Notes: generated by a model from the letters alone, not told the origin. Positions 802-13,222 are shown, counted from the stretch's first letter. The stretch: 15,472 nt of DNA from Candidatus Bathyarchaeota archaeon B26-1 (GCA_001593925.1 LUCD01000039.1:1-15472); one strand, 5' to 3'. Made by a program: numbers and translations.

Positions 802-1158
802 CCATCTCGGCTCTGACTCATGGTTCATGAAGGATATGTAAAAAGGGAATTAGTGCACCCAATCTTGTGCAAAAAGATATTTTAGTCGGTTGAGACTCCT
901 ATTATCCTTGGTAGTGGTGGGTTGAGCCTCTCAATCTCTAAGATTTACATCGGGTTCCTGTACGGCAGGTTGAAGCTCTTAAAGGGCTGTGACGATGTTC
1001 TGAAGAGGCTCTTAGGCTCAGGTGTAGTGTCCCACCACTCCGCGGACCTTCTAACGTAAGATAGTTGAAGATGAGATCGCTAGGTTGGGCGGTGCGATGG
1101 GGAGGATCACCCGTATAGTTGCGCGTGGAGTGGAGGATCTTGAAGAGGTGATCAAGCT

Positions 1159-1623
1159 ATGGAGGCCCAGCTGGCGAAGGTCGAGTATGCATCGGTGAAC
1201 TTGCATACGCCAGAAGGCTTGAAGGAAACAGCCTTAACCGTCCGTGAAGAGGTATTTATCACGATAGAGAGGGAAGTAGCCGAGAAGATCTTGAGGGAGC
1301 TTCCACCAGAGAAGGCCTTCTACTTCTATGCAGACTATGGCCGATACACCGGGAGATACGCGCGGAGCCTAGAGGAGTTCGCTGAAACCTTGGAGACCGT
1401 CCAGGCGGACTCAATAAGATTCCATCCGAGACGTGGGGACTTTCAGGTATGGATAAGAGGCTTAGGAGATGAGGAGCTGGCTGAGGCCCTAAACCGTATA
1501 GACGAGGCCTCCCTAAGCGACGGCGAACTCGGAGCTGAGATCTCAAGAGCCGTCAGGGATAGAATCTCAGAGTTAAAGGCCTCACTCCAATCTAAAGGAC
1601 TGATTAAGGAGAAATCTATATGA
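1159..1623 (+). CDS. hypothetical soluble protein, 154 aa
   Basis: Single ATG start immediately after an in-frame TGA at 1141-1143. The sequence is helical and charged, with no motif I can name. Its reading frame overlaps the next gene by 4 nt (ATGA), which suggests an operon. Confidence 0.55.
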   Translation: MEAQLAKVEYASVNLHTPEGLKETALTVREEVFITIEREVAEKILRELPPEKAFYFYADYGRYTGRYARSLEEFAETLETVQADSIRFHPRRGDFQVWIRGLGDEELAEALNRIDEASLSDGELGAEISRAVRDRISELKASLQSKGLIKEKSI

Positions 1624-1949
1624 CCAAGGCTAGAAGGTCTATGGGGCTTCTATCCCTCGGGATCCTTATACTGGCCGTAGCGGTCTCGATGACCCTCTCA
1701 GGCGCTGGGGTCATCTTTCCCCAGGAGGTTCCATCCTTAACCCTGATCCTATTCGGCCTATGGATTTTAGCCGTAGCTGGATTAAGGAGGTCCTTCGCAA
1801 CCTTCGCCTGGGGAACCCTCATAGGAACCCTAGGGGTTTTATGGCTTCTCTTAAGCCGCCAACTGTTATATGAGTATCTTCCAGCAATCCTCCTATTCGT
1901 GATCGGGGGCCTTTTGGTGGCTTCAGCCCTCCGCCATAAGAGGCCGTAA
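1620..1949 (+). CDS. small integral membrane protein, 109 aa, about 3 TM helices
   Basis: Strongly hydrophobic segments (LLSLGILILAVAVSMTL, LTLILFGLWILAVAGL, LLFVIGGLLVASAL). The ATG overlaps the stop codon of the upstream gene. Confidence 0.55.
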   Translation: MTKARRSMGLLSLGILILAVAVSMTLSGAGVIFPQEVPSLTLILFGLWILAVAGLRRSFATFAWGTLIGTLGVLWLLLSRQLLYEYLPAILLFVIGGLLVASALRHKRP

Positions 1950-2115: not shown

Positions 2116-3093
2116 CTAGGTTAACTTGGCTCCACAGTTTCCACAGAACTTCATTCCAGGCGGGTTCTTGGCGCCGCACTTCGGGCATGTCTTCTCGGTG
2201 GGCCTCAAGGGGGCTCCACAGTTCCCGCAGAACTTCATTTCAGCAGGATTCTGGGCTCCACACTTAGGGCAGATTATAATCCTTTGAGGTTTCGGGGCTG
2301 GTTTCATCATTTGGGCCATCTGGCTTCCTATAGCGAAGCCTATGCCAGCTCCAACCCCTGCTCCGGCAGCTCCTCCAGCTCCTGGTGGAAGCTCGGCAGC
2401 TGTCTCCTTCATATATTGCATCACCATAGCTTGCTGCCCGATCCCCGTGGCGAACCTTCTAGCTTCTTCAGGTATCTTAACACCTTCAAAGACGCAATCG
2501 ATTACTTTTAGGCCTACCCTTGCAACCTCGTCTCTTATGACCAGTGCGACTTTATCCGTGGTCTCGTCTAGGTTCTTCACTATGTTGAAGATGTCATAGT
2601 GGCCAAACTCATCTATTATACGTTCGTTTATGAAGCCTCTGATGTAGTTCTCGACGTCCCTTGACGTGCTGGCTTCTCTGTTCCCGAAGAACTCAACCAC
2701 AAAGAGCTTTGGATCCTCAACCTTGTAGATTACGTATCCGTAGAATCCGAGTTCAGCCTGGTATCCTATTGGTCCGCTTGGGGCTGAATAGGCCTGCCCG
2801 CCGAAGTTCGCCCTGAACTGGCTGTTGCTGACGAAGATAACTTCACAGCTGAAGATGTCGCCGATTATTCTGAGAGCTCTTAAGGCAGCTGTTAGAAGTG
2901 GTATATTTGCGCTCGTTATCGTATGTCTACCCGGACCTAGAACGTCGTAGGCCTTCCCATCCCTGAAGAAGACTGCCCACTGATTCTCCTTTACTATTAC
3001 CTGACTTCCATACTTCAATGTGAGATTTGGGAACCTGTATGCGATATCCTCTGGACCCGCAAAGTCCCATGAGACCCTCTCGACAATGGGCAT
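2116..3093 (-). CDS. SPFH/band-7 (stomatin/prohibitin/flotillin-like) domain protein with a Gly-rich linker and two C-terminal zinc ribbons (COG4260 / B. subtilis YdjI-like architecture)
   Basis: The N-terminal ~250 aa have SPFH-like composition (QWAVFFRDGKAYDVLGPGRHTI...; helical region EVARVGLKVIDCVFEGVKIPEEARRFATGIGQQAMV). Next comes a Gly/Ala-rich segment, GAGGAAGAGVGAGIGFAIG. The C-terminus carries two copies of CPKCGA-x8-KFCGNCGA. There is a GGAG motif 8 nt upstream of the ATG. Confidence 0.8.
   Translation of the reverse strand: MPIVERVSWDFAGPEDIAYRFPNLTLKYGSQVIVKENQWAVFFRDGKAYDVLGPGRHTITSANIPLLTAALRALRIIGDIFSCEVIFVSNSQFRANFGGQAYSAPSGPIGYQAELGFYGYVIYKVEDPKLFVVEFFGNREASTSRDVENYIRGFINERIIDEFGHYDIFNIVKNLDETTDKVALVIRDEVARVGLKVIDCVFEGVKIPEEARRFATGIGQQAMVMQYMKETAAELPPGAGGAAGAGVGAGIGFAIGSQMAQMMKPAPKPQRIIICPKCGAQNPAEMKFCGNCGAPLRPTEKTCPKCGAKNPPGMKFCGNCGAKLT
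2128..2282. repeat. intragenic tandem direct repeat (~75 to 84 bp unit, ~80% identity) encoding the two zinc ribbons
   Basis: ggctccacagtttccacagaacttcattccagg... at 2128 recurs as ggctccacagttcccgcagaacttcatttcagc... at 2212. Confidence 0.7.
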
Positions 3094-3107
3094 ATATCAT
3101 CTTCTCC

Positions 3108-3662
3108 TCATAACCTTAAGGGTCTAAAGCGTCTTTCCCTCTCAATCCATCTATCCTCGAGGGAGAGTAATAAATCTTTCACCCTCCTCACATTTGCTGG
3201 AAGCTCACCCCAGTTCTCAGACTCGACATAGCTCTGAACCTTCTCGACCTCATCCTTAAGGCTGTCAATCCGGGATCCCAGCTCCCTGTCATAGTTTAAG
3301 ATCCCAGCCAGCTCCTCCTCTCTTATAGAGCCCTTCCTATCGAAGAGGCCGGCATATCCATAATCTGCATGGTGGATCTTCTCCATAACCCTATCCATAA
3401 CCTGGATCACCTTCTTTAAGTCTCGGGTTGGAGCCTTCACACCGGCCTCCAAGACCGCCAGGTATATATCCTCCCATAAGTGGCGTAGACGTTTAAGATC
3501 CATATAGTAGAGGTCTCGAAGCATCTTGTCGAGTTCCCTCAAATCCTCTTTTGTGCCATAACCCAATGTGAAGAAGTTCTTTATTTCAGAGAGAACCCCT
3601 TGCCTATCCCTCATCTCCTCTACAATATCACGCTTCCGTCTACCCATCTCTTGACACCTCAA
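3108..3662 (-). CDS. hypothetical alpha-helical protein, 184 aa, middle gene of the operon
   Basis: Its ATG overlaps the upstream stop (ATGA coupling) and it ends 14 nt before the SPFH gene. The sequence is charged and helical (coiled-coil-like C-terminus DSLKDEVEKVQSYVESENWGELPANVRRVKDLLLSLEDRWIERERR). I recognise no family. Confidence 0.6.
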   Translation of the reverse strand: MRCQEMGRRKRDIVEEMRDRQGVLSEIKNFFTLGYGTKEDLRELDKMLRDLYYMDLKRLRHLWEDIYLAVLEAGVKAPTRDLKKVIQVMDRVMEKIHHADYGYAGLFDRKGSIREEELAGILNYDRELGSRIDSLKDEVEKVQSYVESENWGELPANVRRVKDLLLSLEDRWIERERRFRPLRL

Positions 3663-5041
3663 ATCAGTTTTATAAGGGGTCTTCCCCCACCTAAAACTTT
3701 ACCTGTAGATCCATCTACAGCCACTGCGTAGTCCCTCTCACCTAACTTGTAATGGACAAACCATACGGGAGCATGGAGGAGCTCGCCCTCGCCGACTCTA
3801 ACTCTGGTGTGGCAGGTCTCTATAGTGTCAACTTCTTCTGAGACAAGCTCCCTCTGCTTGATTTCGACTTCAGCCTTCACCTTATCCTTAGCTTCTTCTT
3901 CGTTCAATTCCGTATTGAAGAACTCTGCATCACTTGGAATCCTTCCAGGATCAAAGGGAATCTTCCTTTCTAGAGGAACCTCGTAATATTTAACATCGCT
4001 CAGCACGGCTCTTCTGGCCAAGACAGTCCAGTCATATTGGCGAGAGATGGTTCTCGAGATTCTCCTGAACGTTGGCCCCCGCTCATAGGCCACATAACCC
4101 TCAATCGCTAACTCGGCCGCGGCCTTCAGGACTTTCCCGAGCTTAACCCAACCTTTCTTTCTCTCATCAGTGACAGCGTGCTTTATCTCACGGAGCTCAG
4201 AGACGCCTAGACCCCTCCTGCCAGTATAGTATGTCTCAGCGTAAGCTGGGAAGATCCAGAAGGGTATATACCTCAACCTTACACCCGTGATCTGAGCTTT
4301 TTCAGCTACTCCTCGACGTAGAACCCCCTTGTCCATGTATTCTTTGGCTATGTCAACAGCCTCCTGTGGATGAAGCTTATTCTCAATCATACTATGTTTC
4401 TTGATCTCCTCACGGGTTGCGACCACAATTGTATTTCCGCAGTATCGACACGTTATGATTACATCCTCCCTGGTCACGTCTAGTGGAGCTCCACATCTTG
4501 TACAGTTCGTTGGGATGGGTTTAACGGCCTGAATTGAAGGGGTCTGAGCTTCCTTTGTTGTGAGTGGTGGGGCGGTAACGGTTGGCGTAGTCCACCTAAC
4601 AACCTCAACTCCAATACTTTTTGTGGTGACATCAGGCCTCTTCTTTACGGCTATGACTCCCTTTGCTTCCCATCTTATCCTTCGATCTGGCTCGAGTGAG
4701 GTTGGCGGGGCATAGTGCGGAATCTTAACTTTAAAGGGAAATTCCTCCTTATATCTTGGAGTAAGGTGAAGTCTTCCGCATACCCTTTCCTTAGTTGACC
4801 ATAAGATCTGAGTGGTTTCCTTCTCTTCCCATCCTTCCTTAGTGTGAACTAGATTCTTAGTTCTTGACCAGCACTTAACCTCAACCCTGACCTCATCCGC
4901 ATCAAACTCTTCTTCCGAGGTTACGTGAAGAGTTCCAGTTAATTCCTCCCCCAAACCGACAACATTCCTGTCTAAAGCTATGAAGACCTTAGCTTTAGGT
5001 TTCGTTACTCTCATCTTAATCTTTTTAAAGAACCCCACCAT
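3659..5041 (-). CDS. arrestin-like (Spo0M-type N-domain) protein with an internal zinc ribbon and a C-terminal duplicated beta-hairpin domain
   Basis: The N-terminus FFKKIK...AKVFIALDRNVVGLGEELTGTLHVTSEEEFDADEVRVEVKCW...FPFKVKIPHYAPPT matches the Spo0M (sporulation-control, arrestin-like beta-sandwich) pattern. A zinc ribbon CTRCGAPL-x12-CRYCG follows. The C-terminal domain has two related hairpin motifs (RYIPFWIFPAYAETYYTGRRG and HAPVWFVHYKLGERDYAVAVDGSTGKV). The ORF track starts at 5059, but the TATA centred near 5080 places the transcription start near 5053, so the ATG at 5041 (MVGFFKK) is the more likely start. Confidence 0.72.
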   Translation of the reverse strand: MVGFFKKIKMRVTKPKAKVFIALDRNVVGLGEELTGTLHVTSEEEFDADEVRVEVKCWSRTKNLVHTKEGWEEKETTQILWSTKERVCGRLHLTPRYKEEFPFKVKIPHYAPPTSLEPDRRIRWEAKGVIAVKKRPDVTTKSIGVEVVRWTTPTVTAPPLTTKEAQTPSIQAVKPIPTNCTRCGAPLDVTREDVIITCRYCGNTIVVATREEIKKHSMIENKLHPQEAVDIAKEYMDKGVLRRGVAEKAQITGVRLRYIPFWIFPAYAETYYTGRRGLGVSELREIKHAVTDERKKGWVKLGKVLKAAAELAIEGYVAYERGPTFRRISRTISRQYDWTVLARRAVLSDVKYYEVPLERKIPFDPGRIPSDAEFFNTELNEEEAKDKVKAEVEIKQRELVSEEVDTIETCHTRVRVGEGELLHAPVWFVHYKLGERDYAVAVDGSTGKVLGGGRPLIKLI

Positions 5042-5070
5042 AAATATCTCCCTGTTCATAGTATTAAAAA

Positions 5071-5090
5071 TTTATTTTATAAAATTTTTG
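5071..5090. promoter_or_regulatory. near-palindromic AT-rich TATA element (TTTATTTTATAAAATTTTT) in a divergent intergenic region
   Basis: This is the only strongly AT-rich stretch between the minus operon start (5041) and the plus gene at 5247. It is positioned about 30 nt upstream of the 5041 ATG on the minus strand. Confidence 0.4.
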
Positions 5091-5246: not shown

Positions 5247-5507
5247 ATGTCTCAGCCTCAAAGAGTGGAAGGTCCTGAGGAAAGAATCTCGATTGAAGGG
5301 GCGTTCTTATGCCCTTTCTGCGGTGCCCCTTATAGGAAGTTGATCCCATCCGGCACAGTCCAAGTTAGGTGCGAATATTGTGGAGCCATGATCTTGGTTC
5401 CACCTAGGCTGAGGGAGGTTCAGCGGTGCCCAAACCATCCAGACAGGGTCTCGGTCGGGATATGTAACGACTGCGGTAAGGGCTTGACTGCCTCACCGTC
5501 ATGGTGA
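5247..5507 (+). CDS. small zinc-finger protein, 86 aa, with a zinc ribbon plus a B-box-like second finger
   Basis: CPFCGAPYRKLIPSGTVQVRCEYCG forms a CxxC...CxxC ribbon, followed by RCPNHPDRVSVGICNDCGKGL (C-x2-H...C-x2-C). A TATA-like ACTTTTATTCAATA lies about 25 nt upstream. The stop overlaps the next gene start (ATGGTGA). Confidence 0.55.
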   Translation: MSQPQRVEGPEERISIEGAFLCPFCGAPYRKLIPSGTVQVRCEYCGAMILVPPRLREVQRCPNHPDRVSVGICNDCGKGLTASPSW

Positions 5508-6244
5508 TTTCAGAATCCAGCGAAGGGACTGCGATCAGATACCTATGCCCAGACTGCCTGAGGAAGAAGAAGAGCGGCGAGGCAGCAGCTCCATTTTTAA
5601 TATTACTTCCCTCCTTAATTTTAGCTTGGTTTTTCCTACTGATTAAAGCTATAGTCCCCTTAATTTTTATAATAGCATACTCCTTCTTCGCCGCCATCGC
5701 ATTATCCTCCTCTAAAAGTGCGTATGAGGGTCTGCCGACGTTCAATATGCTCATGAAGAAGATGTTGGAGCTGAGGAGAAGAGTTGAGGTGATTAAGGCT
5801 AAGATGAGCGAGGAGGAGGTTGAGAGGCTCTACTCTACCCTTAAGAGGAAAGACCTCGTCACAGACCCATACACGGGGAGGTACATGTATAGAGAGGACA
5901 TCGACAATACCATCAAGAAGTATATGCGGTCAGGCCTCACAAGGAGGGAAGCCGTGATACAGTTAGCCATCGAGAAAGGTATCCCGTTGAGGCCCGGCTT
6001 ACACATCCCCCCAACCATATATGATGCTTTCTCCGAGCTGAAGAGGGAAATAAAGAAGGAGATGGCTAAAGCTGTTAGGGTAGGGAGCCATGAAGAGGAG
6101 TACGAGCGGCTAATAGACAAGTACAGCAGAATCTACGGCCGGAGCAGATACGCCCTCGAACACAAGATAGAGGAGTACATGATGGGAGGCCTAAGCAGGG
6201 AGGAAGCGATAAGGGTACTTGCAGAGGAGGAAGGAGTGACCTAA
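5501..6244 (+). CDS. membrane protein, 247 aa: N-terminal CPDC motif, two predicted TM helices, then tandem ~40-aa helical repeats
   Basis: Hydrophobic PFLILLPSLILAWFFLLIKAIVPLIFIIAYSFFAAIAL. The two repeats are DPYTGRYMYREDIDNTIKKYMRSGLTRREAVIQLAIEKGIP and YSRIYGRSRYALEHKIEEYMMGGLSREEAIRVLAEEEGVT, sharing YxGR..Y.......YM..GL.R.EA....LA.E.G. It is translationally coupled to 5247..5507. Confidence 0.6.
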   Translation: MVISESSEGTAIRYLCPDCLRKKKSGEAAAPFLILLPSLILAWFFLLIKAIVPLIFIIAYSFFAAIALSSSKSAYEGLPTFNMLMKKMLELRRRVEVIKAKMSEEEVERLYSTLKRKDLVTDPYTGRYMYREDIDNTIKKYMRSGLTRREAVIQLAIEKGIPLRPGLHIPPTIYDAFSELKREIKKEMAKAVRVGSHEEEYERLIDKYSRIYGRSRYALEHKIEEYMMGGLSREEAIRVLAEEEGVT

Positions 6245-6950: not shown

Positions 6951-7898
6951 GTGCGGGTTAGGAGGTTCAGGGAGATTACCTACCGGGAGCTCTTTGTATC
7001 TCCACCTTTGAAGTTCGGTGGGGTTCAGAGGACCTACGGAGAAGCAGACTACGTAGTCTTGGGCGTCCCCTTCGACGTTACGAGCACGTATCGGGTAGGT
7101 GCAAGGTTCGCCCCCCAAGCTGTTCGGGAGGCCTCCCTCAACATCGAGACCTACAGCTTCCGGTCCGGAATAGACTTTGAGAACCTGTCGATCCATGACC
7201 TCGGAGATTTAGACGTAACCGGCTCTGCTGAAGAGACCTTGAAGCGTCTGGAGTTCGTAGTGGGGGAGATACTGGATTCGGGGAAAGTCCCAGTCATGAT
7301 AGGAGGGGAGCACACCATAACCTTGGGGGCCGTGAAGGCTTTGCGGGCCGCACTTGGCTCCGGAGGGAGATTAGCTGTCCTGAGCTTCGACGCCCATCTG
7401 GACCTAAGGGACGAGTACATGGGTTGGAGGGTGTCCCACACAACCTTCATGCGTAGGATAGACGAGGAGGTTAAACCCAAGATCGTTGAGGTCGGCGTCC
7501 GAGCTGCCTGCAGAGAAGAGGTGAGGTACGCGGAGGACTCCGGAATCCACGTCTTCACGTCCATGGAGGTCCTGAGAAGAGGCCCCGAAGATGTTGTGGA
7601 GAGGGTTAGAGGCCTACTTGAAGGCTGCGACTCTATCTACTTGACTGTTGACATGGATGTTCTGGACCCCGCTTTCGCCCCCGCCGTTCAGAACCCCGAG
7701 CCGGAAGGCCTGACGATGCACACCCTCCTCGAGGCCCTATCTGGAATTTGCGACCGGAGGATTGCCGCCTTCGACGTCGTGGAGGTCGCCCCAAACTACG
7801 ATGAAGGAGTAACAGCTATAGGAGCCGCGAAGATCATATTCGAGGTCCTATGCTGTTTGGAGAGAAGACGCCGGGCTGAAACCCAACGTTGCTCATAG
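6951..7898 (+). CDS. agmatinase/arginase-family ureohydrolase; start uncertain (GTG 6951 or TTG 7008)
   Basis: Ureohydrolase hallmarks are present: GVPFD, GGEHTIT, SFDAHLDL and TVDMDVLDPAFAP (binuclear-Mn ligands). The N-terminus of homologs usually lies 20 to 30 aa before GVPFD. The TATA at 6919 supports a start near 6951. Confidence 0.8.
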   Translation: MRVRRFREITYRELFVSPPLKFGGVQRTYGEADYVVLGVPFDVTSTYRVGARFAPQAVREASLNIETYSFRSGIDFENLSIHDLGDLDVTGSAEETLKRLEFVVGEILDSGKVPVMIGGEHTITLGAVKALRAALGSGGRLAVLSFDAHLDLRDEYMGWRVSHTTFMRRIDEEVKPKIVEVGVRAACREEVRYAEDSGIHVFTSMEVLRRGPEDVVERVRGLLEGCDSIYLTVDMDVLDPAFAPAVQNPEPEGLTMHTLLEALSGICDRRIAAFDVVEVAPNYDEGVTAIGAAKIIFEVLCCLERRRRAETQRCS

Positions 7899-7930
7899 AT
7901 TCATACAAGTTTAGATAGTCTGCACATTAT

Positions 7931-7939
7931 TTTTATATA
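7931..7939 (+). promoter_or_regulatory. TATA-like TTTTATATA upstream of the ECF transporter operon
   Basis: AT-rich element about 100 nt upstream of the TTG start at 8036. It also lies in the T-rich tail after the ureohydrolase stop. Confidence 0.35.
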
Positions 7940-8035
7940 CTTCCTTAATTCTTCAAGGATGAAGGCTCTAGGGGAAGCGAAGGCGATTTATCGTCCCGTT
8001 TCGGGCATACGGCACGCGGGGTGTGGCTGTAAGTC

Positions 8036-9796
8036 TTGGAGATCATCAAGACGGAGAACCTGACGTATACCTATCCGATCGGGGAGAAGCCGGCCTTCAG
8101 CAACGTATCCATAACCATCAATAAGGGGGAGTTCGTCCTCCTGACGGGTCCCAGCGGATGTGGCAAGACGACCCTCTGCCGATGCTTCAACGGGCTTATC
8201 CCCCACTTCTACAACGGAACGTTGGAGGGTAAGATCACGGTGGCCGGCATGGACGTGACCGAACACCCCATCCACGAGTTCGCACAGCACGTCGGACTCG
8301 TCTTCCAGAACCCGGAGAACCAGCTCTTCGCCCTCTCCGTCGAGAAAGACGTCGCCTTCGCCCTAGAAAACTTGGGGCTTCCAAGGGAGGAGATAAGGAG
8401 GAGGGTTGACTGGGCTCTTGAGGTTACGGGCATAACGGACCTCAAGGATAGGGCTCCCTACGAGCTGAGCGGAGGCCAGCAGCAGCGCGTCGCGATCGCC
8501 TCCGTCTTAGCCATGAAGCCGGATGTCATAGTCCTAGACGAGCCCACATCGTTCCTAGACCCTCTGAGCGCCAAGAAGATATTCGATGTCATAGGCGGTC
8601 TGAACAGGGGGCTGGGCATAACGATCATCCTAGTCGAGCACCGTTTAGACCTAGCCGCCCGCTACGCAGACCGGATAATAGTTATGGACGAGGGTAAGAT
8701 AATTCTGGATGGTAAGCCTAGGGAGGTCTTCAGCTCGGAGGAGGCTAGGCTGGTAGGTGTGGGTATACCTAGAGCAACCCGGCTCTATCAGGTTCTCAAG
8801 GGTATGGGCCTCGACTTGGGCGGCGTCCCCATAACCTCTGAGGAGGCCTCCAAGATGGTGAGGGAGGTCCTCACCCGCAGAGCTCCAAGCAAAAACCCTT
8901 TGGGAAGACGTGAGGCGGGTACGCAGGTTCTTCCAGCCGGGAAAGCAGGGTCGAAAACCGTGATCGAGGTCGAAGACGTGTACTATACGTATCCTAATGG
9001 CGTTGAAGCCTTGAGGGGGGTCTCTCTGAGGGTTCGTGAAGGCGAGTTCGTCGCCATAATGGGGCAGAACGGGGCTGGCAAGACGACGTTGGTCAAGCAT
9101 TTCAACGGGTTGCTGAAGCCTACGAGGGGGCGGGTCTTGATCGACGGTGTTGAAACGAGAGGTGTAAGCGTTGCGAGGCTCGCCAGAAAGGTTGGGTTCG
9201 TCTTCCAGAACCCTGACCACCAGCTCTTCTGCGAGACCGTTGAGAAGGAGGTGGCCTTCGCCCTAAAGAACTTCGGATTCGACGAGGAGACTACGAGGAA
9301 ACGTGTTGACTGGGCTCTTAACATACTCGACTTGACGGAGTACCGCGATGTCTCGCCCTTCATGCTCAGTGGAGGTGAGAGGAAGCGTGTCGCTCTGGCC
9401 TCGGTCTTGGCGTGGGACCCCGAGGTACTCATCCTTGACGAGCCTACGATAGGCCAAGACTACAGGCAGAAGGAGAGGCTCATGAACTTCATCATGCAGC
9501 TCAACGCGCAGGGGAAGACCGTGATAATAGTGACGCATGACGTAGAGTTCGTGGCGGAGTGCAAGCCGAGGGTCATCTTGATGGCTGAGGGGAAGATTCT
9601 AGCCGACGGGGACCCCCACAAAGTCCTAACCGACCTGAACCTGCTGGAACGTGCCTCCCTGACGCCTCCCGAAGCCTCCCAGATATTGGAGGGGCTAAAG
9701 GATGTTGGGCTCGACGGCGAGGCTATAGATGTCTACGAGGTTAGCAGGCTGATCATGGAGAGGTTCAAGAGCGCCTCAGGGGTGGAAAATCCGTGA
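8036..9796 (+). CDS. ECF-type (cobalt/vitamin energy-coupling factor) ABC transporter ATPase with two fused ATP-binding domains (EcfA1-EcfA2 fusion)
   Basis: Two complete ABC cassettes: Walker A GPSGCGKTT and GQNGAGKTT, signatures LSGGQQQRVAIA and LSGGERKRVALA, Walker B VIVLDEPTS and VLILDEPTI, H-loops VEHR and VTHD. Each half has the EcfA-type Q-helix FQNPENQLF / FQNPDHQLF. TTG start. An in-frame TAA lies at 8030. Confidence 0.88.
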   Translation: MEIIKTENLTYTYPIGEKPAFSNVSITINKGEFVLLTGPSGCGKTTLCRCFNGLIPHFYNGTLEGKITVAGMDVTEHPIHEFAQHVGLVFQNPENQLFALSVEKDVAFALENLGLPREEIRRRVDWALEVTGITDLKDRAPYELSGGQQQRVAIASVLAMKPDVIVLDEPTSFLDPLSAKKIFDVIGGLNRGLGITIILVEHRLDLAARYADRIIVMDEGKIILDGKPREVFSSEEARLVGVGIPRATRLYQVLKGMGLDLGGVPITSEEASKMVREVLTRRAPSKNPLGRREAGTQVLPAGKAGSKTVIEVEDVYYTYPNGVEALRGVSLRVREGEFVAIMGQNGAGKTTLVKHFNGLLKPTRGRVLIDGVETRGVSVARLARKVGFVFQNPDHQLFCETVEKEVAFALKNFGFDEETTRKRVDWALNILDLTEYRDVSPFMLSGGERKRVALASVLAWDPEVLILDEPTIGQDYRQKERLMNFIMQLNAQGKTVIIVTHDVEFVAECKPRVILMAEGKILADGDPHKVLTDLNLLERASLTPPEASQILEGLKDVGLDGEAIDVYEVSRLIMERFKSASGVENP

Positions 9797-12668: not shown

Positions 12669-12687
12669 AAACTTTTCTTTCGGCTTT
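12669..12687. terminator. T-rich tract (aacttttctttcggcttt) between convergent genes
   Basis: Pyrimidine/T-rich run immediately after the GPN GTPase stop, overlapping the stop of the convergent minus-strand gene. It is typical of an archaeal intrinsic terminator. Confidence 0.35.
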
Positions 12688-13222
12688 AAGAAGCGTACAC
12701 TACTCCTCCGAGCCTCTCCTCCCTCTCTGCAGCCGCGACGGGAGCCCTCTCCTCCACTCTGGCCGGGCTTATCCTCAGCCCCACATATCCAGCTATGAAG
12801 GCTGAGACGGGCTCGAAGGAGTATAAGATGACATCGTGTATTTGGGGAATCCAGTGCGTGTTGTAGGGTTCACCCGCCATGGCGAATGTTCCTAAAACCA
12901 AGCCTCCTAAGATTCCGTTTGCGAAGAGGTAGACAGTGAAGGCTACGATCAGGGCGTCCTTGATCTCCCGCACCCTGTATATGTATATGACGAAGATGGC
13001 GGAGGCGAAGGACGGCAGAAAGTACAGGTTTACCTCTGGGGGTGAAAGGATGAAGATCATAACTGAGATGAGCGCGCCGAAGACTCCCGCACTTAAATCC
13101 TTCATAACCAAGTTCATGCCTACGGGCCTGAACTTGATGCGGGTTCCACAGTTAGGGCAGAACCTAAGATTCTCATCTTTAGGTAACGGGGTCCCACATC
13201 TTGGGCAACGGGGCATCAACAA
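12686..13222 (-). CDS. membrane protein with an N-terminal zinc ribbon, 178 aa
   Basis: CPRCGTPLPKDENLRFCPNCG ribbon followed by about 4 hydrophobic helices. The palindromic TATA GTTTATAAATAC at 13249-13258 sits about 27 nt upstream of the ATG, giving a leaderless start. Confidence 0.6.
   Translation of the reverse strand: MLMPRCPRCGTPLPKDENLRFCPNCGTRIKFRPVGMNLVMKDLSAGVFGALISVMIFILSPPEVNLYFLPSFASAIFVIYIYRVREIKDALIVAFTVYLFANGILGGLVLGTFAMAGEPYNTHWIPQIHDVILYSFEPVSAFIAGYVGLRISPARVEERAPVAAAEREERLGGVVYAS

Follow-up and report, generated by a model that had tools for sequence, protein, structure and literature searches.

A PspA-less operon of Bathyarchaeia with a YdjI-like SPFH protein, a conserved helical partner and a YdjG-like protein carrying an arrestin lobe

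The DNA described here, referred to below as the window, is the whole 15,472-nucleotide stretch LUCD01000039.1:1-15472 of Candidatus Bathyarchaeota archaeon B26-1 (GCA_001593925.1). Its open reading frames (ORFs) include three co-directional genes on the minus strand, named here g1, g2 and g3 from 5' to 3', which encode a protein with an arrestin lobe, a zinc ribbon and a core resembling YdjG (SamG) of Bacillus subtilis, a helical bundle, and an SPFH protein resembling YdjI (SamI). The genes and features are as follows, with lengths in amino acids (aa) or nucleotides (nt) and with the evidence in brackets.

3659-5041, minus strand: g1, 460 aa, Spo0M-type arrestin lobe, Pro-rich linker, zinc ribbon and YdjG-like core (ORF, homologue alignment, AlphaFold2 model)
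4592-5011, minus strand: arrestin lobe of g1, Spo0M type, single, residues ~11-150
4514-4591, minus strand: Pro/Thr-rich low-confidence linker of g1, residues ~151-176 (AlphaFold2, homologue alignment)
4430-4510, minus strand: zinc ribbon of g1, CTRCG...CRYCG, residues ~178-204 (homologue alignment)
3662-4429, minus strand: YdjG/SamG-like core of g1, residues ~205-460 (BLASTP, hhalign, hidden Markov model (HMM))
3108-3647, minus strand: g2, 179-aa helical bundle of the LIMLP_15305-like superfamily (ORF, AlphaFold2, profile searches)
3094-3107, minus strand: g2-g3 spacer ggagaagatgatat, 14 nt, with a GGAG ribosome-binding motif (read from sequence)
2116-3093, minus strand: g3, 325-aa YdjI-like SPFH protein (Pfam, BLASTP)
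2455-3039, minus strand: Band_7_1 domain of g3 (Pfam)
2308-2397, minus strand: Gly/Ala-rich segment of g3, residues 233-262
2122-2277, minus strand: two zinc ribbons of g3 (Pfam DZR/Zn_Ribbon_1)
1620-1949, plus strand: small 109-aa protein with four predicted transmembrane (TM) segments, 4-TM in short, convergent with g3 (HMM, hydrophobicity, gene clustering)
5071-5084, minus strand: TATA-like A/T-rich box TTTTATAAAATAAA upstream of g1, a putative archaeal promoter element (read from sequence)

The tight coupling of the three minus-strand genes and the GGAG-bearing spacer before the last of them, both put forward in a first-pass annotation of this DNA, are borne out by the ORF coordinates and junctions. 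The ATGA overlap that it placed between g1 and g2 lies elsewhere, at 1620-1623, where a DUF5752-like ORF (1159-1623, plus strand) runs into the 4-TM gene; the g1/g2 junction reads aTTTGA, and with a TTG start of g2 at 3662 the two genes would overlap at the TGA stop (3661-3659). An alternative ATG at 3647 is located 11 nt past the g1 stop, with GAGGTG at 3660-3655. Because the homologue alignment and the 179-aa length of a 97%-identical homologue favour this ATG, it is the more likely start, and the 184 aa initially reported would hold only for the TTG; with either start g1 and g2 are tightly coupled. Counted from its first ATG (5059) g1 has 466 aa, and from the ATG at 5041 it has 460 aa, the latter being more likely, since the N-termini of homologues begin there and a GGGAG box precedes it.

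The most firmly placed of the three products is g3. Pfam family PF13421 (Band_7_1) matches it with 81.1 bits against a cut-off of 24 (E-value 1.1e-22) and PF01145 with 54.1 bits, and two DZR/Zn_Ribbon_1 matches follow towards the C terminus, in line with the SPFH protein with Gly-rich segment and two zinc ribbons announced by the first-pass annotation. For the comparison with Bacillus a B. subtilis-type pspA-ydjGHI locus from a metagenome was used, which was found through the ydjG primer of PMC8581546. A collinear, full-length BLASTP alignment relates g3 to YdjI/SamI of this locus (E-value 3e-14), so that the likeness to YdjI noticed earlier stands. TM prediction gives no strong hydrophobic segment in g3, which thus displays the YdjI architecture (no TM segment, a Gly-rich segment and C-terminal zinc ribbons) and is best classified, from these profile and alignment data, as a predicted soluble SPFH protein of the YdjI type. 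Scans of the hydrophobic moment give none of the three proteins a convincing amphipathic helix for membrane binding, and PDB sequence searches with them returned nothing useful.

Concerning g1, its N-terminal ~150 residues find their best sequence and structure matches in Spo0M and the N-lobes of alpha-arrestins. Pfam reports Arrestin_N with 26.4 bits (cut-off 24.9) and Spo0M with 25.3 bits (cut-off 23) over residues 11-147, the Spo0M profile being matched at positions 1-110 of 213 only. The AlphaFold2 model (predicted local distance difference test, pLDDT, 81.4) shows an arrestin-type beta-sandwich lobe joined by a disordered, Pro-rich linker to a zinc ribbon, which is followed by a two-part alpha+beta C-domain. 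This beta-sandwich is common to ARRDC3, TXNIP, Vps26, beta-arrestins and Spo0M. The two-lobe (N+C) architecture of arrestins and Vps26 is not found in g1, whose beta-sandwich is confined to residues ~11-150 and followed by the linker (pLDDT below 50 at residues 151-171), which varies in length and sequence between homologues; Spo0M has an additional C-terminal part, whereas in g1 the linker leads to the zinc ribbon and the YdjG-like core. We know of no receptor- or cargo-binding function for any prokaryotic member of the arrestin fold.

The zinc ribbon (CxxC...CxxC, residues 180-202, with weak Pfam zinc-ribbon matches at 183-212) has all four Cys invariant in 49 homologues and aligns with the second of the zinc ribbons of YdjG. 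Behind it, the C-domain is built of two alpha+beta subdomains with the beta-hairpin motifs RYIPFW and APVWFVHY...DG.TGKVLGGG. Zinc ribbon and C-domain (~260 residues) form the conserved core among homologues, with more than 60 invariant positions that include RYxPFW and HxPxWFxxY...G..GKxLGGGxP. BLASTP aligns g1 with YdjG over the zinc ribbon, the helix and the YIPFW hairpin (E-value 8e-10) and again over the C-terminal PVW...TGKV.G hairpin (E-value 7e-5), hhalign gives the pair a probability of 97.3% (E-value 1.9e-11), and an HMM made from archaeal sequences alone matches YdjG with an E-value of 1.6e-15. As judged by these alignments, the core of g1 is homologous to B. subtilis YdjG/SamG, and g1 shows the zinc ribbon followed by a YpeB/PepSY-related core that marks this family; a short archaeal paralogue of the core gives a weak PepSY match. 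According to PMC11237479, YdjG comprises two zinc ribbons, an NTF2-like domain related to YpeB, and a TM segment. No hydrophobic segment is found in g1 at Kyte-Doolittle thresholds of 1.2 or 1.6, and its C terminus ends ...GKVLGGGRPLIKLI, where YdjG runs on into VAAWFSGIAGGTFLALKLVSLMMGGGF.

Since Pfam matches and AlphaFold2 models agree with it, the anatomy drawn at first, i.e. a Spo0M-type arrestin N-domain, an internal zinc ribbon and a hairpin C-domain in g1, is confirmed. The lobe itself is not a fixed part of the system, and the N-terminal heads interchange among homologues: an arrestin lobe in the window and in relatives of ~470-500 aa, an unrelated ~95-aa domain in relatives of ~415 aa, and an extra zinc ribbon in others. 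By this comparison of homologues, the arrestin lobe is a swappable accessory head of g1.

The g2 protein was rightly read as all-helical; its AlphaFold2 model is a compact bundle (pLDDT 81.7, predicted template modelling score, pTM, 0.76) containing a long hairpin, H33-68/H72-92. A g2 profile run against 1.84 billion cluster representatives recovered 462 relatives (50% clustering) of ~175 aa with the motifs (I)PGxxGYxxKExRRxADKxLR and HAxYGYxGFFD. Neither g2 nor 40 diverse relatives belong to a Pfam family by Pfam scan, and the only library match of the superfamily is NCBIfam NF047596 (LIMLP_15305 family, Leptospira), which 40 out of 40 sampled relatives match at an E-value of 1e-3 or better (best 2.4e-23); g2 and these relatives have in common the ~175-aa length and the motifs GYxxKExRRxxDKxxR and HAxYGYxGFFD. 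The window protein scores 23.4 bits (E-value 4.4e-5) where the curated equivalog cut-off is 210 bits, and it is because of this gap that we place g2 outside the equivalog, as a distant relative within an unnamed helical-bundle superfamily. To our knowledge the LIMLP_15305 family has no described function. The labels 'barstar' and 'DUF47/Yka' that some g2 homologues bear at JGI were not reproduced by Pfam. Among rare fusions, the g2 domain is joined to DUF4178 in P0358 (by Pfam) and P0350 (judged by eye from sequence), and an N-terminal zinc ribbon and linker precede it in P0352 and P0353, with which zinc ribbons recur on all components. DUF4178 is a domain of CesT/Tir-PspA operons (PMC11237479), and the fusions give a faint contextual tie of g2 to systems of the phage shock protein type.

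To characterize the gene neighbourhood, one genome per GTDB species was scanned with a narrower g2 alignment (A5), which was used because the diverse alignment (A4) was too divergent as a seed. At least 586 genomes hold a g2 relative; the best 80 loci were examined, and neighbours were counted by mapping HMMs on six-frame ORFs around g2. These loci are labelled Nitrososphaeria, Brockarchaeota, Thermofilaceae, Bathyarchaeia and Geothermarchaeota, together with a few probably mis-binned contigs. A Band_7_1 SPFH gene lies directly downstream of g2 in 77 of the 79 assessable archaeal loci, the two exceptions being a degraded SPFH remnant and a loss. A gene for the YdjG-like core lies within 7 kb of g2 in 47 of the 80 loci, either as a single ~250-aa gene directly upstream or as a tandem pair, upstream in Thermofilaceae and downstream in Brockarchaeota-type loci. 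The order g1-g2-SPFH is kept in other Bathyarchaeia contigs and g2-SPFH is found across Thermoproteota; co-location of the module genes is far beyond chance, and the possibility raised at the outset that the homologues might never be neighbours in other genomes does not apply. Beyond archaea, g2 and SPFH genes are adjacent in two of four bacterial loci examined, from two phyla (an Eremiobacterota genome and a Bacillota metagenome-assembled genome, MAG); the g1-core HMM finds no match in the 348- and 361-aa ORFs (the second also called 353 aa) beside the Eremiobacterota pair. A single-sequence phmmer search with B. subtilis PspA (E-value up to 1, ±7 kb) detects no homologue in the window or in 87 non-Bacillus loci, and none of the window proteins scanned has a PspA Pfam match, in agreement with the earlier remark that no PspA gene is adjacent. 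A TPM domain of the YdjH type is likewise missing from the window operon and the scanned flanking ORFs.

The module sits in conserved housekeeping synteny, with lysyl-tRNA synthetase and a flavin adenine dinucleotide (FAD) enzyme in one paralogous locus type, and with arginase and an ECF transporter in the window. Three loci labelled Methanocella, Nanoarchaeia and Limnocylindrales (L055, L065 and L075) have exactly the Bathyarchaeia synteny around the module and are probably mis-binned, which bears on the taxonomic range. Two paralogous copies occur within single Bathyarchaeia MAGs (L050/L082 in isolate bog_990, L038/L074 in Bin_735), from which it follows that the module was duplicated as a unit.

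The first-pass component list, limited to three genes, missed a fourth conserved one. All-against-all clustering of neighbours identifies a family of ~110-120-aa proteins adjoining the module in 58 of 80 genome loci, and the window product of 1620-1949, with four predicted hydrophobic segments, matches the HMM of this family (E-value 7.6e-24). It has no Pfam match, DUF350/YjfL included. Its ATGA overlap with the DUF5752-like ORF suggests that these two genes are translationally coupled, and hence that the 4-TM gene belongs to another transcription unit, convergent with g3. As g1, g2 and g3 are devoid of predicted TM segments, the 4-TM protein is the candidate, and likely, membrane anchor of the system. 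A 424-aa AAA_14 ATPase, component or passenger, is encoded between the SPFH and 4-TM genes in the Brockarchaeota-type loci L005, L006, L010 and L013.

Three independent assemblies of a sister population (L091, L092 and L093), in which the flanks have 95-97% nt identity to the window and g2 is 97% identical, have an in-frame 1023-bp deletion of window positions 3965-4987 that removes g1 residues ~23-365. What is left of g1 is a decaying remnant of 113 aa, at just 85% identity and with further small deletions, and g2, g3 and the 4-TM gene are intact (4-TM protein 95% aa identity). Since these strains deleted most of g1 yet kept the other three genes, the pattern agrees with g2 and SPFH being the core and g1 being accessory and dispensable, and with most of g1 lost in close relatives the arrestin lobe is again not a fixed part. 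The same contigs show a second indel flanking the operon: window positions 894-1555 (662 bp, the 5' part of the DUF5752-like ORF) are absent from them.

The arrestin link is met in three arrangements, namely as the fusion with the YdjG-like core that the window has, as an Arrestin_N plus zinc-ribbon gene directly after SPFH-4TM in Thermofilaceae locus L027 (7082-7615, E-value 2.4e-9), and as such a gene ~6 kb upstream in Brockarchaeota-type loci. The stand-alone Arrestin_N plus zinc-ribbon proteins measure 177-191 aa and occur in L027, in L006 (535-1110) and, as equivalents, in L007, L010, L014, L019, L022 and L025. In B. subtilis, spo0M has the strongest sigma-W dependence after sigW-rsiW, and pspA-ydjGHI belongs to the same regulon (PMC3498285). 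The archaeal fusion therefore predicts a functional link of Spo0M with the YdjGHI module. A Spo0M-type lobe that in Bacillus is merely co-regulated with the SPFH module by sigma-W is here physically tied to it, and this connection provides a hypothesis, open to testing, on Spo0M, whose function has long been unclear.

The closest known system is the pspA-ydjGHI (pspA-samGHI) operon of B. subtilis. YdjI/SamI and g3 are alike in the Band_7_1 domain, the Gly-rich low-complexity segment, a C-terminal zinc ribbon and the lack of TM segments; YdjG/SamG and the g1 core in the zinc ribbon and the hairpin motifs YIPFW and PVW..Y..G.TGKV.G; and both operons have the same order, with the YdjG-like gene upstream and the SPFH gene last. 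They differ in that the window operon has no PspA and no TPM-domain YdjH, its middle gene coding for an unrelated helical bundle (hhalign probability of the g2 family against YdjH, 0.1%), in that g1 has one zinc ribbon instead of two and an arrestin lobe instead of a C-terminal TM helix, and in that g3, unlike YdjI, has two zinc ribbons, with the 4-TM protein as the likely anchor of the archaeal module. YdjI is soluble and its membrane foci require YdjG and YdjH (PMC8581546). Since the g1 core is homologous to YdjG and g3 is collinear with YdjI, the locus can be described as a variant of the ydjG-ydjI module without PspA and YdjH. The ydjGHI genes are described as a Firmicute PspA operon in PMC8581546, PMC9239133, PMC11237479 and PMC10936438, which make no mention of an archaeal form, the g2 family, the arrestin fusion or the 4-TM neighbour. 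The combination, at first taken for an undescribed one, is hence not wholly new, since the g1 core and g3 have their counterparts in YdjG/SamG and YdjI/SamI.

Other SPFH systems can be compared as well. In stomatin-NfeD, FloT-YuaF and HflK/C-FtsH an SPFH protein and a dedicated small partner are encoded in a tightly coupled operon, as in the window, and a membrane-associated oligomeric scaffold is expected of these as of g3. On the other hand, g3, a member of the Band_7_1 (YdjI/COG4260) branch, lacks an anchor in the form of a TM segment or hairpin, g2 is a helical bundle where NfeD has an OB-fold, and no protease is linked to the window operon. The 'Meth_adaptin' ESCRT loci of archaea (Makarova et al. 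2024, PMC10936438) contain an SPFH protein with coiled coil and zinc ribbon in a membrane-trafficking-like context, reminiscent of the zinc-ribbon extensions of g3, the two SPFH proteins being set side by side by description; the Vps4, ESCRT-III and adaptin-appendage genes of those loci were not seen in the Pfam-annotated loci of the module.

Taken together, we interpret the locus, with a probability of roughly 0.6, as an archaeal, PspA-independent relative of the B. subtilis YdjG-YdjI (SamG-SamI) SPFH membrane module, with a scaffold or stress role and g2 as a near-obligate partner. In such a module g3 would oligomerise at the cytoplasmic side of the membrane, as a ring or cage of SPFH subunits, g2 would be its obligate stoichiometric partner, regulating or capping the assembly and filling the place that YdjH and/or PspA have in Bacillus, and the 4-TM protein would anchor the complex, perhaps together with the Gly-rich and zinc-ribbon tails. 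Docking of g1 on this complex may take place via the zinc ribbon and YdjG-like core of g1, and its arrestin lobe would serve as an accessory head, an adaptor or sensor by which a client or signal is recruited. The expected output would be membrane-integrity surveillance or scaffolding, not remodelling of the ESCRT-III type.

It should be noted that several points weigh against this interpretation. Every step of the proposed mechanism derives from the context of the genes and from work on distant Bacillus homologues (22-31% identity). The 4-TM gene lies on the opposite strand in the window and is missing in L001-L003 and L090, the closest orthologous loci of full length, so it may not be essential. 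Thermoflexus and a contig of Anaerolineales have g2-like genes on their own, hence g2 is not strictly tied to SPFH. Without the TM helix of YdjG, g1 may differ in its mode of action. Finally, the PspA search spans ±7 kb only, and genes for PspA or ESCRT-III that lie outside this range in the genome could still work together with the module.

Three other explanations deserve comparison with this one. SPFH families typically partner membrane proteases and PepSY domains are protease-inhibitor modules, so g3 could form a ring that gates a membrane protease in the manner of HflK/C-FtsH or stomatin-NfeD, with the arrestin lobe as substrate or adaptor. The HflK/C cage (cited in PMC10936438) provides the model; in addition, FtsH of B. 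subtilis interacts with Spo0M and has it as a substrate (PMC5325327), the g1 core is PepSY/YpeB-like (by the weak match of its short paralogue; PMC11237479), and ~6 loci have a gene for an M48/HtpX-like peptidase no more than a few kb away. However, that HtpX-like gene (~6 of 83 loci) appears only within conserved synteny and no protease is a consistent neighbour, no NfeD-like gene is present, and published work on YdjI speaks of signalling and of the recruitment of PspA rather than of protease control, which leaves protease gating an unlikely role. The proposal of the first-pass annotation, with g2 as a diverged polymeriser of the PspA/Snf7 type that the SPFH protein would bring to the membrane much as YdjI does with PspA, has fared worse. 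It could appeal to the position of g2 in a PspA-less operon of a YdjI-like protein, to its all-helical nature and long hairpin and to the rare fusions with a domain of PspA operons; but hhalign of the g2 family against PspA gives a probability of 0.2%, the 40 diverse relatives contain no PspA_IM30 or Snf7 Pfam match, and the model is a compact bundle, not the extended ESCRT-III hairpin, and does not reproduce the ESCRT-III fold (long alpha1-alpha2 hairpin, alpha3-5 packing). g2 is not PspA- or ESCRT-III-like, and remodelling of this type is very improbable here.

A function as an anti-virus or conflict system, with the SPFH scaffold and the zinc-ribbon proteins as sensors of infection, would be in keeping with the multi-gene, zinc-ribbon-rich make-up and variable N-terminal heads of the module, features typical of defence systems, and the presence or absence of g1 among close strains resembles defence-gene flux. 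We give it hardly any credence: PADLOC matches none of g1, g2 and g3, collections of phages and plasmids yield no match, no effector such as a nuclease or NTPase accompanies the module consistently, and its housekeeping synteny is stable across many species.

Returning to the YdjG-YdjI relationship, its main implication is that a module so far seen as a Firmicute PspA accessory has a widespread PspA-less archaeal counterpart, which fits recent evidence that SamGHI acts independently of PspA, with PspA-independent phenotypes and signalling roles (bioRxiv 10.64898/2026.02.06.704340). The g2 family, as a near-obligate operon partner of Band_7_1 proteins, offers a handle on how this SPFH branch works. 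A more ambitious and rather doubtful extension would have LIMLP_15305-like proteins as the ancestral cognate effectors or regulators of Band_7_1 scaffolds in archaea and several bacterial phyla, with Spo0M-type arrestin lobes as client adaptors. If true, the g2 family would be an SPFH-partner family of a rank like NfeD or PspA, and prokaryotic arrestin-fold proteins would gain a first functional context and stand as a possible antecedent of arrestin/Vps26-type membrane adaptors. The module is solid and widely conserved, and conclusions that come from comparative genomics, as these do, would change no major paradigm unless the function of the partner proves new.

With regard to the surroundings, the best homologues of the window proteins are from Candidatus Bathyarchaeia, and the flanks, in which neighbour proteins were annotated in part, contain housekeeping genes (arginase, ECF transporter, CinA, GPN-loop GTPase and geranylgeranyl reductase). 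A further zinc-ribbon membrane protein of the contig, unlinked to the operon, is encoded at 12686-13222 (minus strand, 178 aa, N-terminal zinc ribbon, multi-TM region and a weak SpoIIGA/Peptidase_U4-like match). A divergent 247-aa ORF at 5501-6244 (plus strand) has a CxxC motif, one strong TM helix, no Pfam family and repeats of the helical motif GL(T/S)R(R/E)EA(V/I)..LA.E.G; a 325-aa version is present in the sister contigs, and it is not kept beside the operon in L001/L002. These two loci have, convergent with the SPFH gene (9040-9372 in L001 and 8897-9217 in L002, minus strand), a gene for a protein of 106-110 aa whose hydrophobic N-terminus resembles a Gly zipper and which has a double zinc ribbon, like a free-standing SPFH C-terminal tail. 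Upstream of the module they have a divergent three-gene operon (L001 1735-5056, L002 1697-5041, minus strand) for a ~650-aa SMC_N/AAA_15 ATPase and proteins of 275 and 184 aa, as well as a gene for a 228-aa protein, none of them in the window. In L090, a single observation, a gene for the mechanosensitive channel MscL (7659-8096) lies two genes downstream of an arrestin-type g1-g2-SPFH operon.

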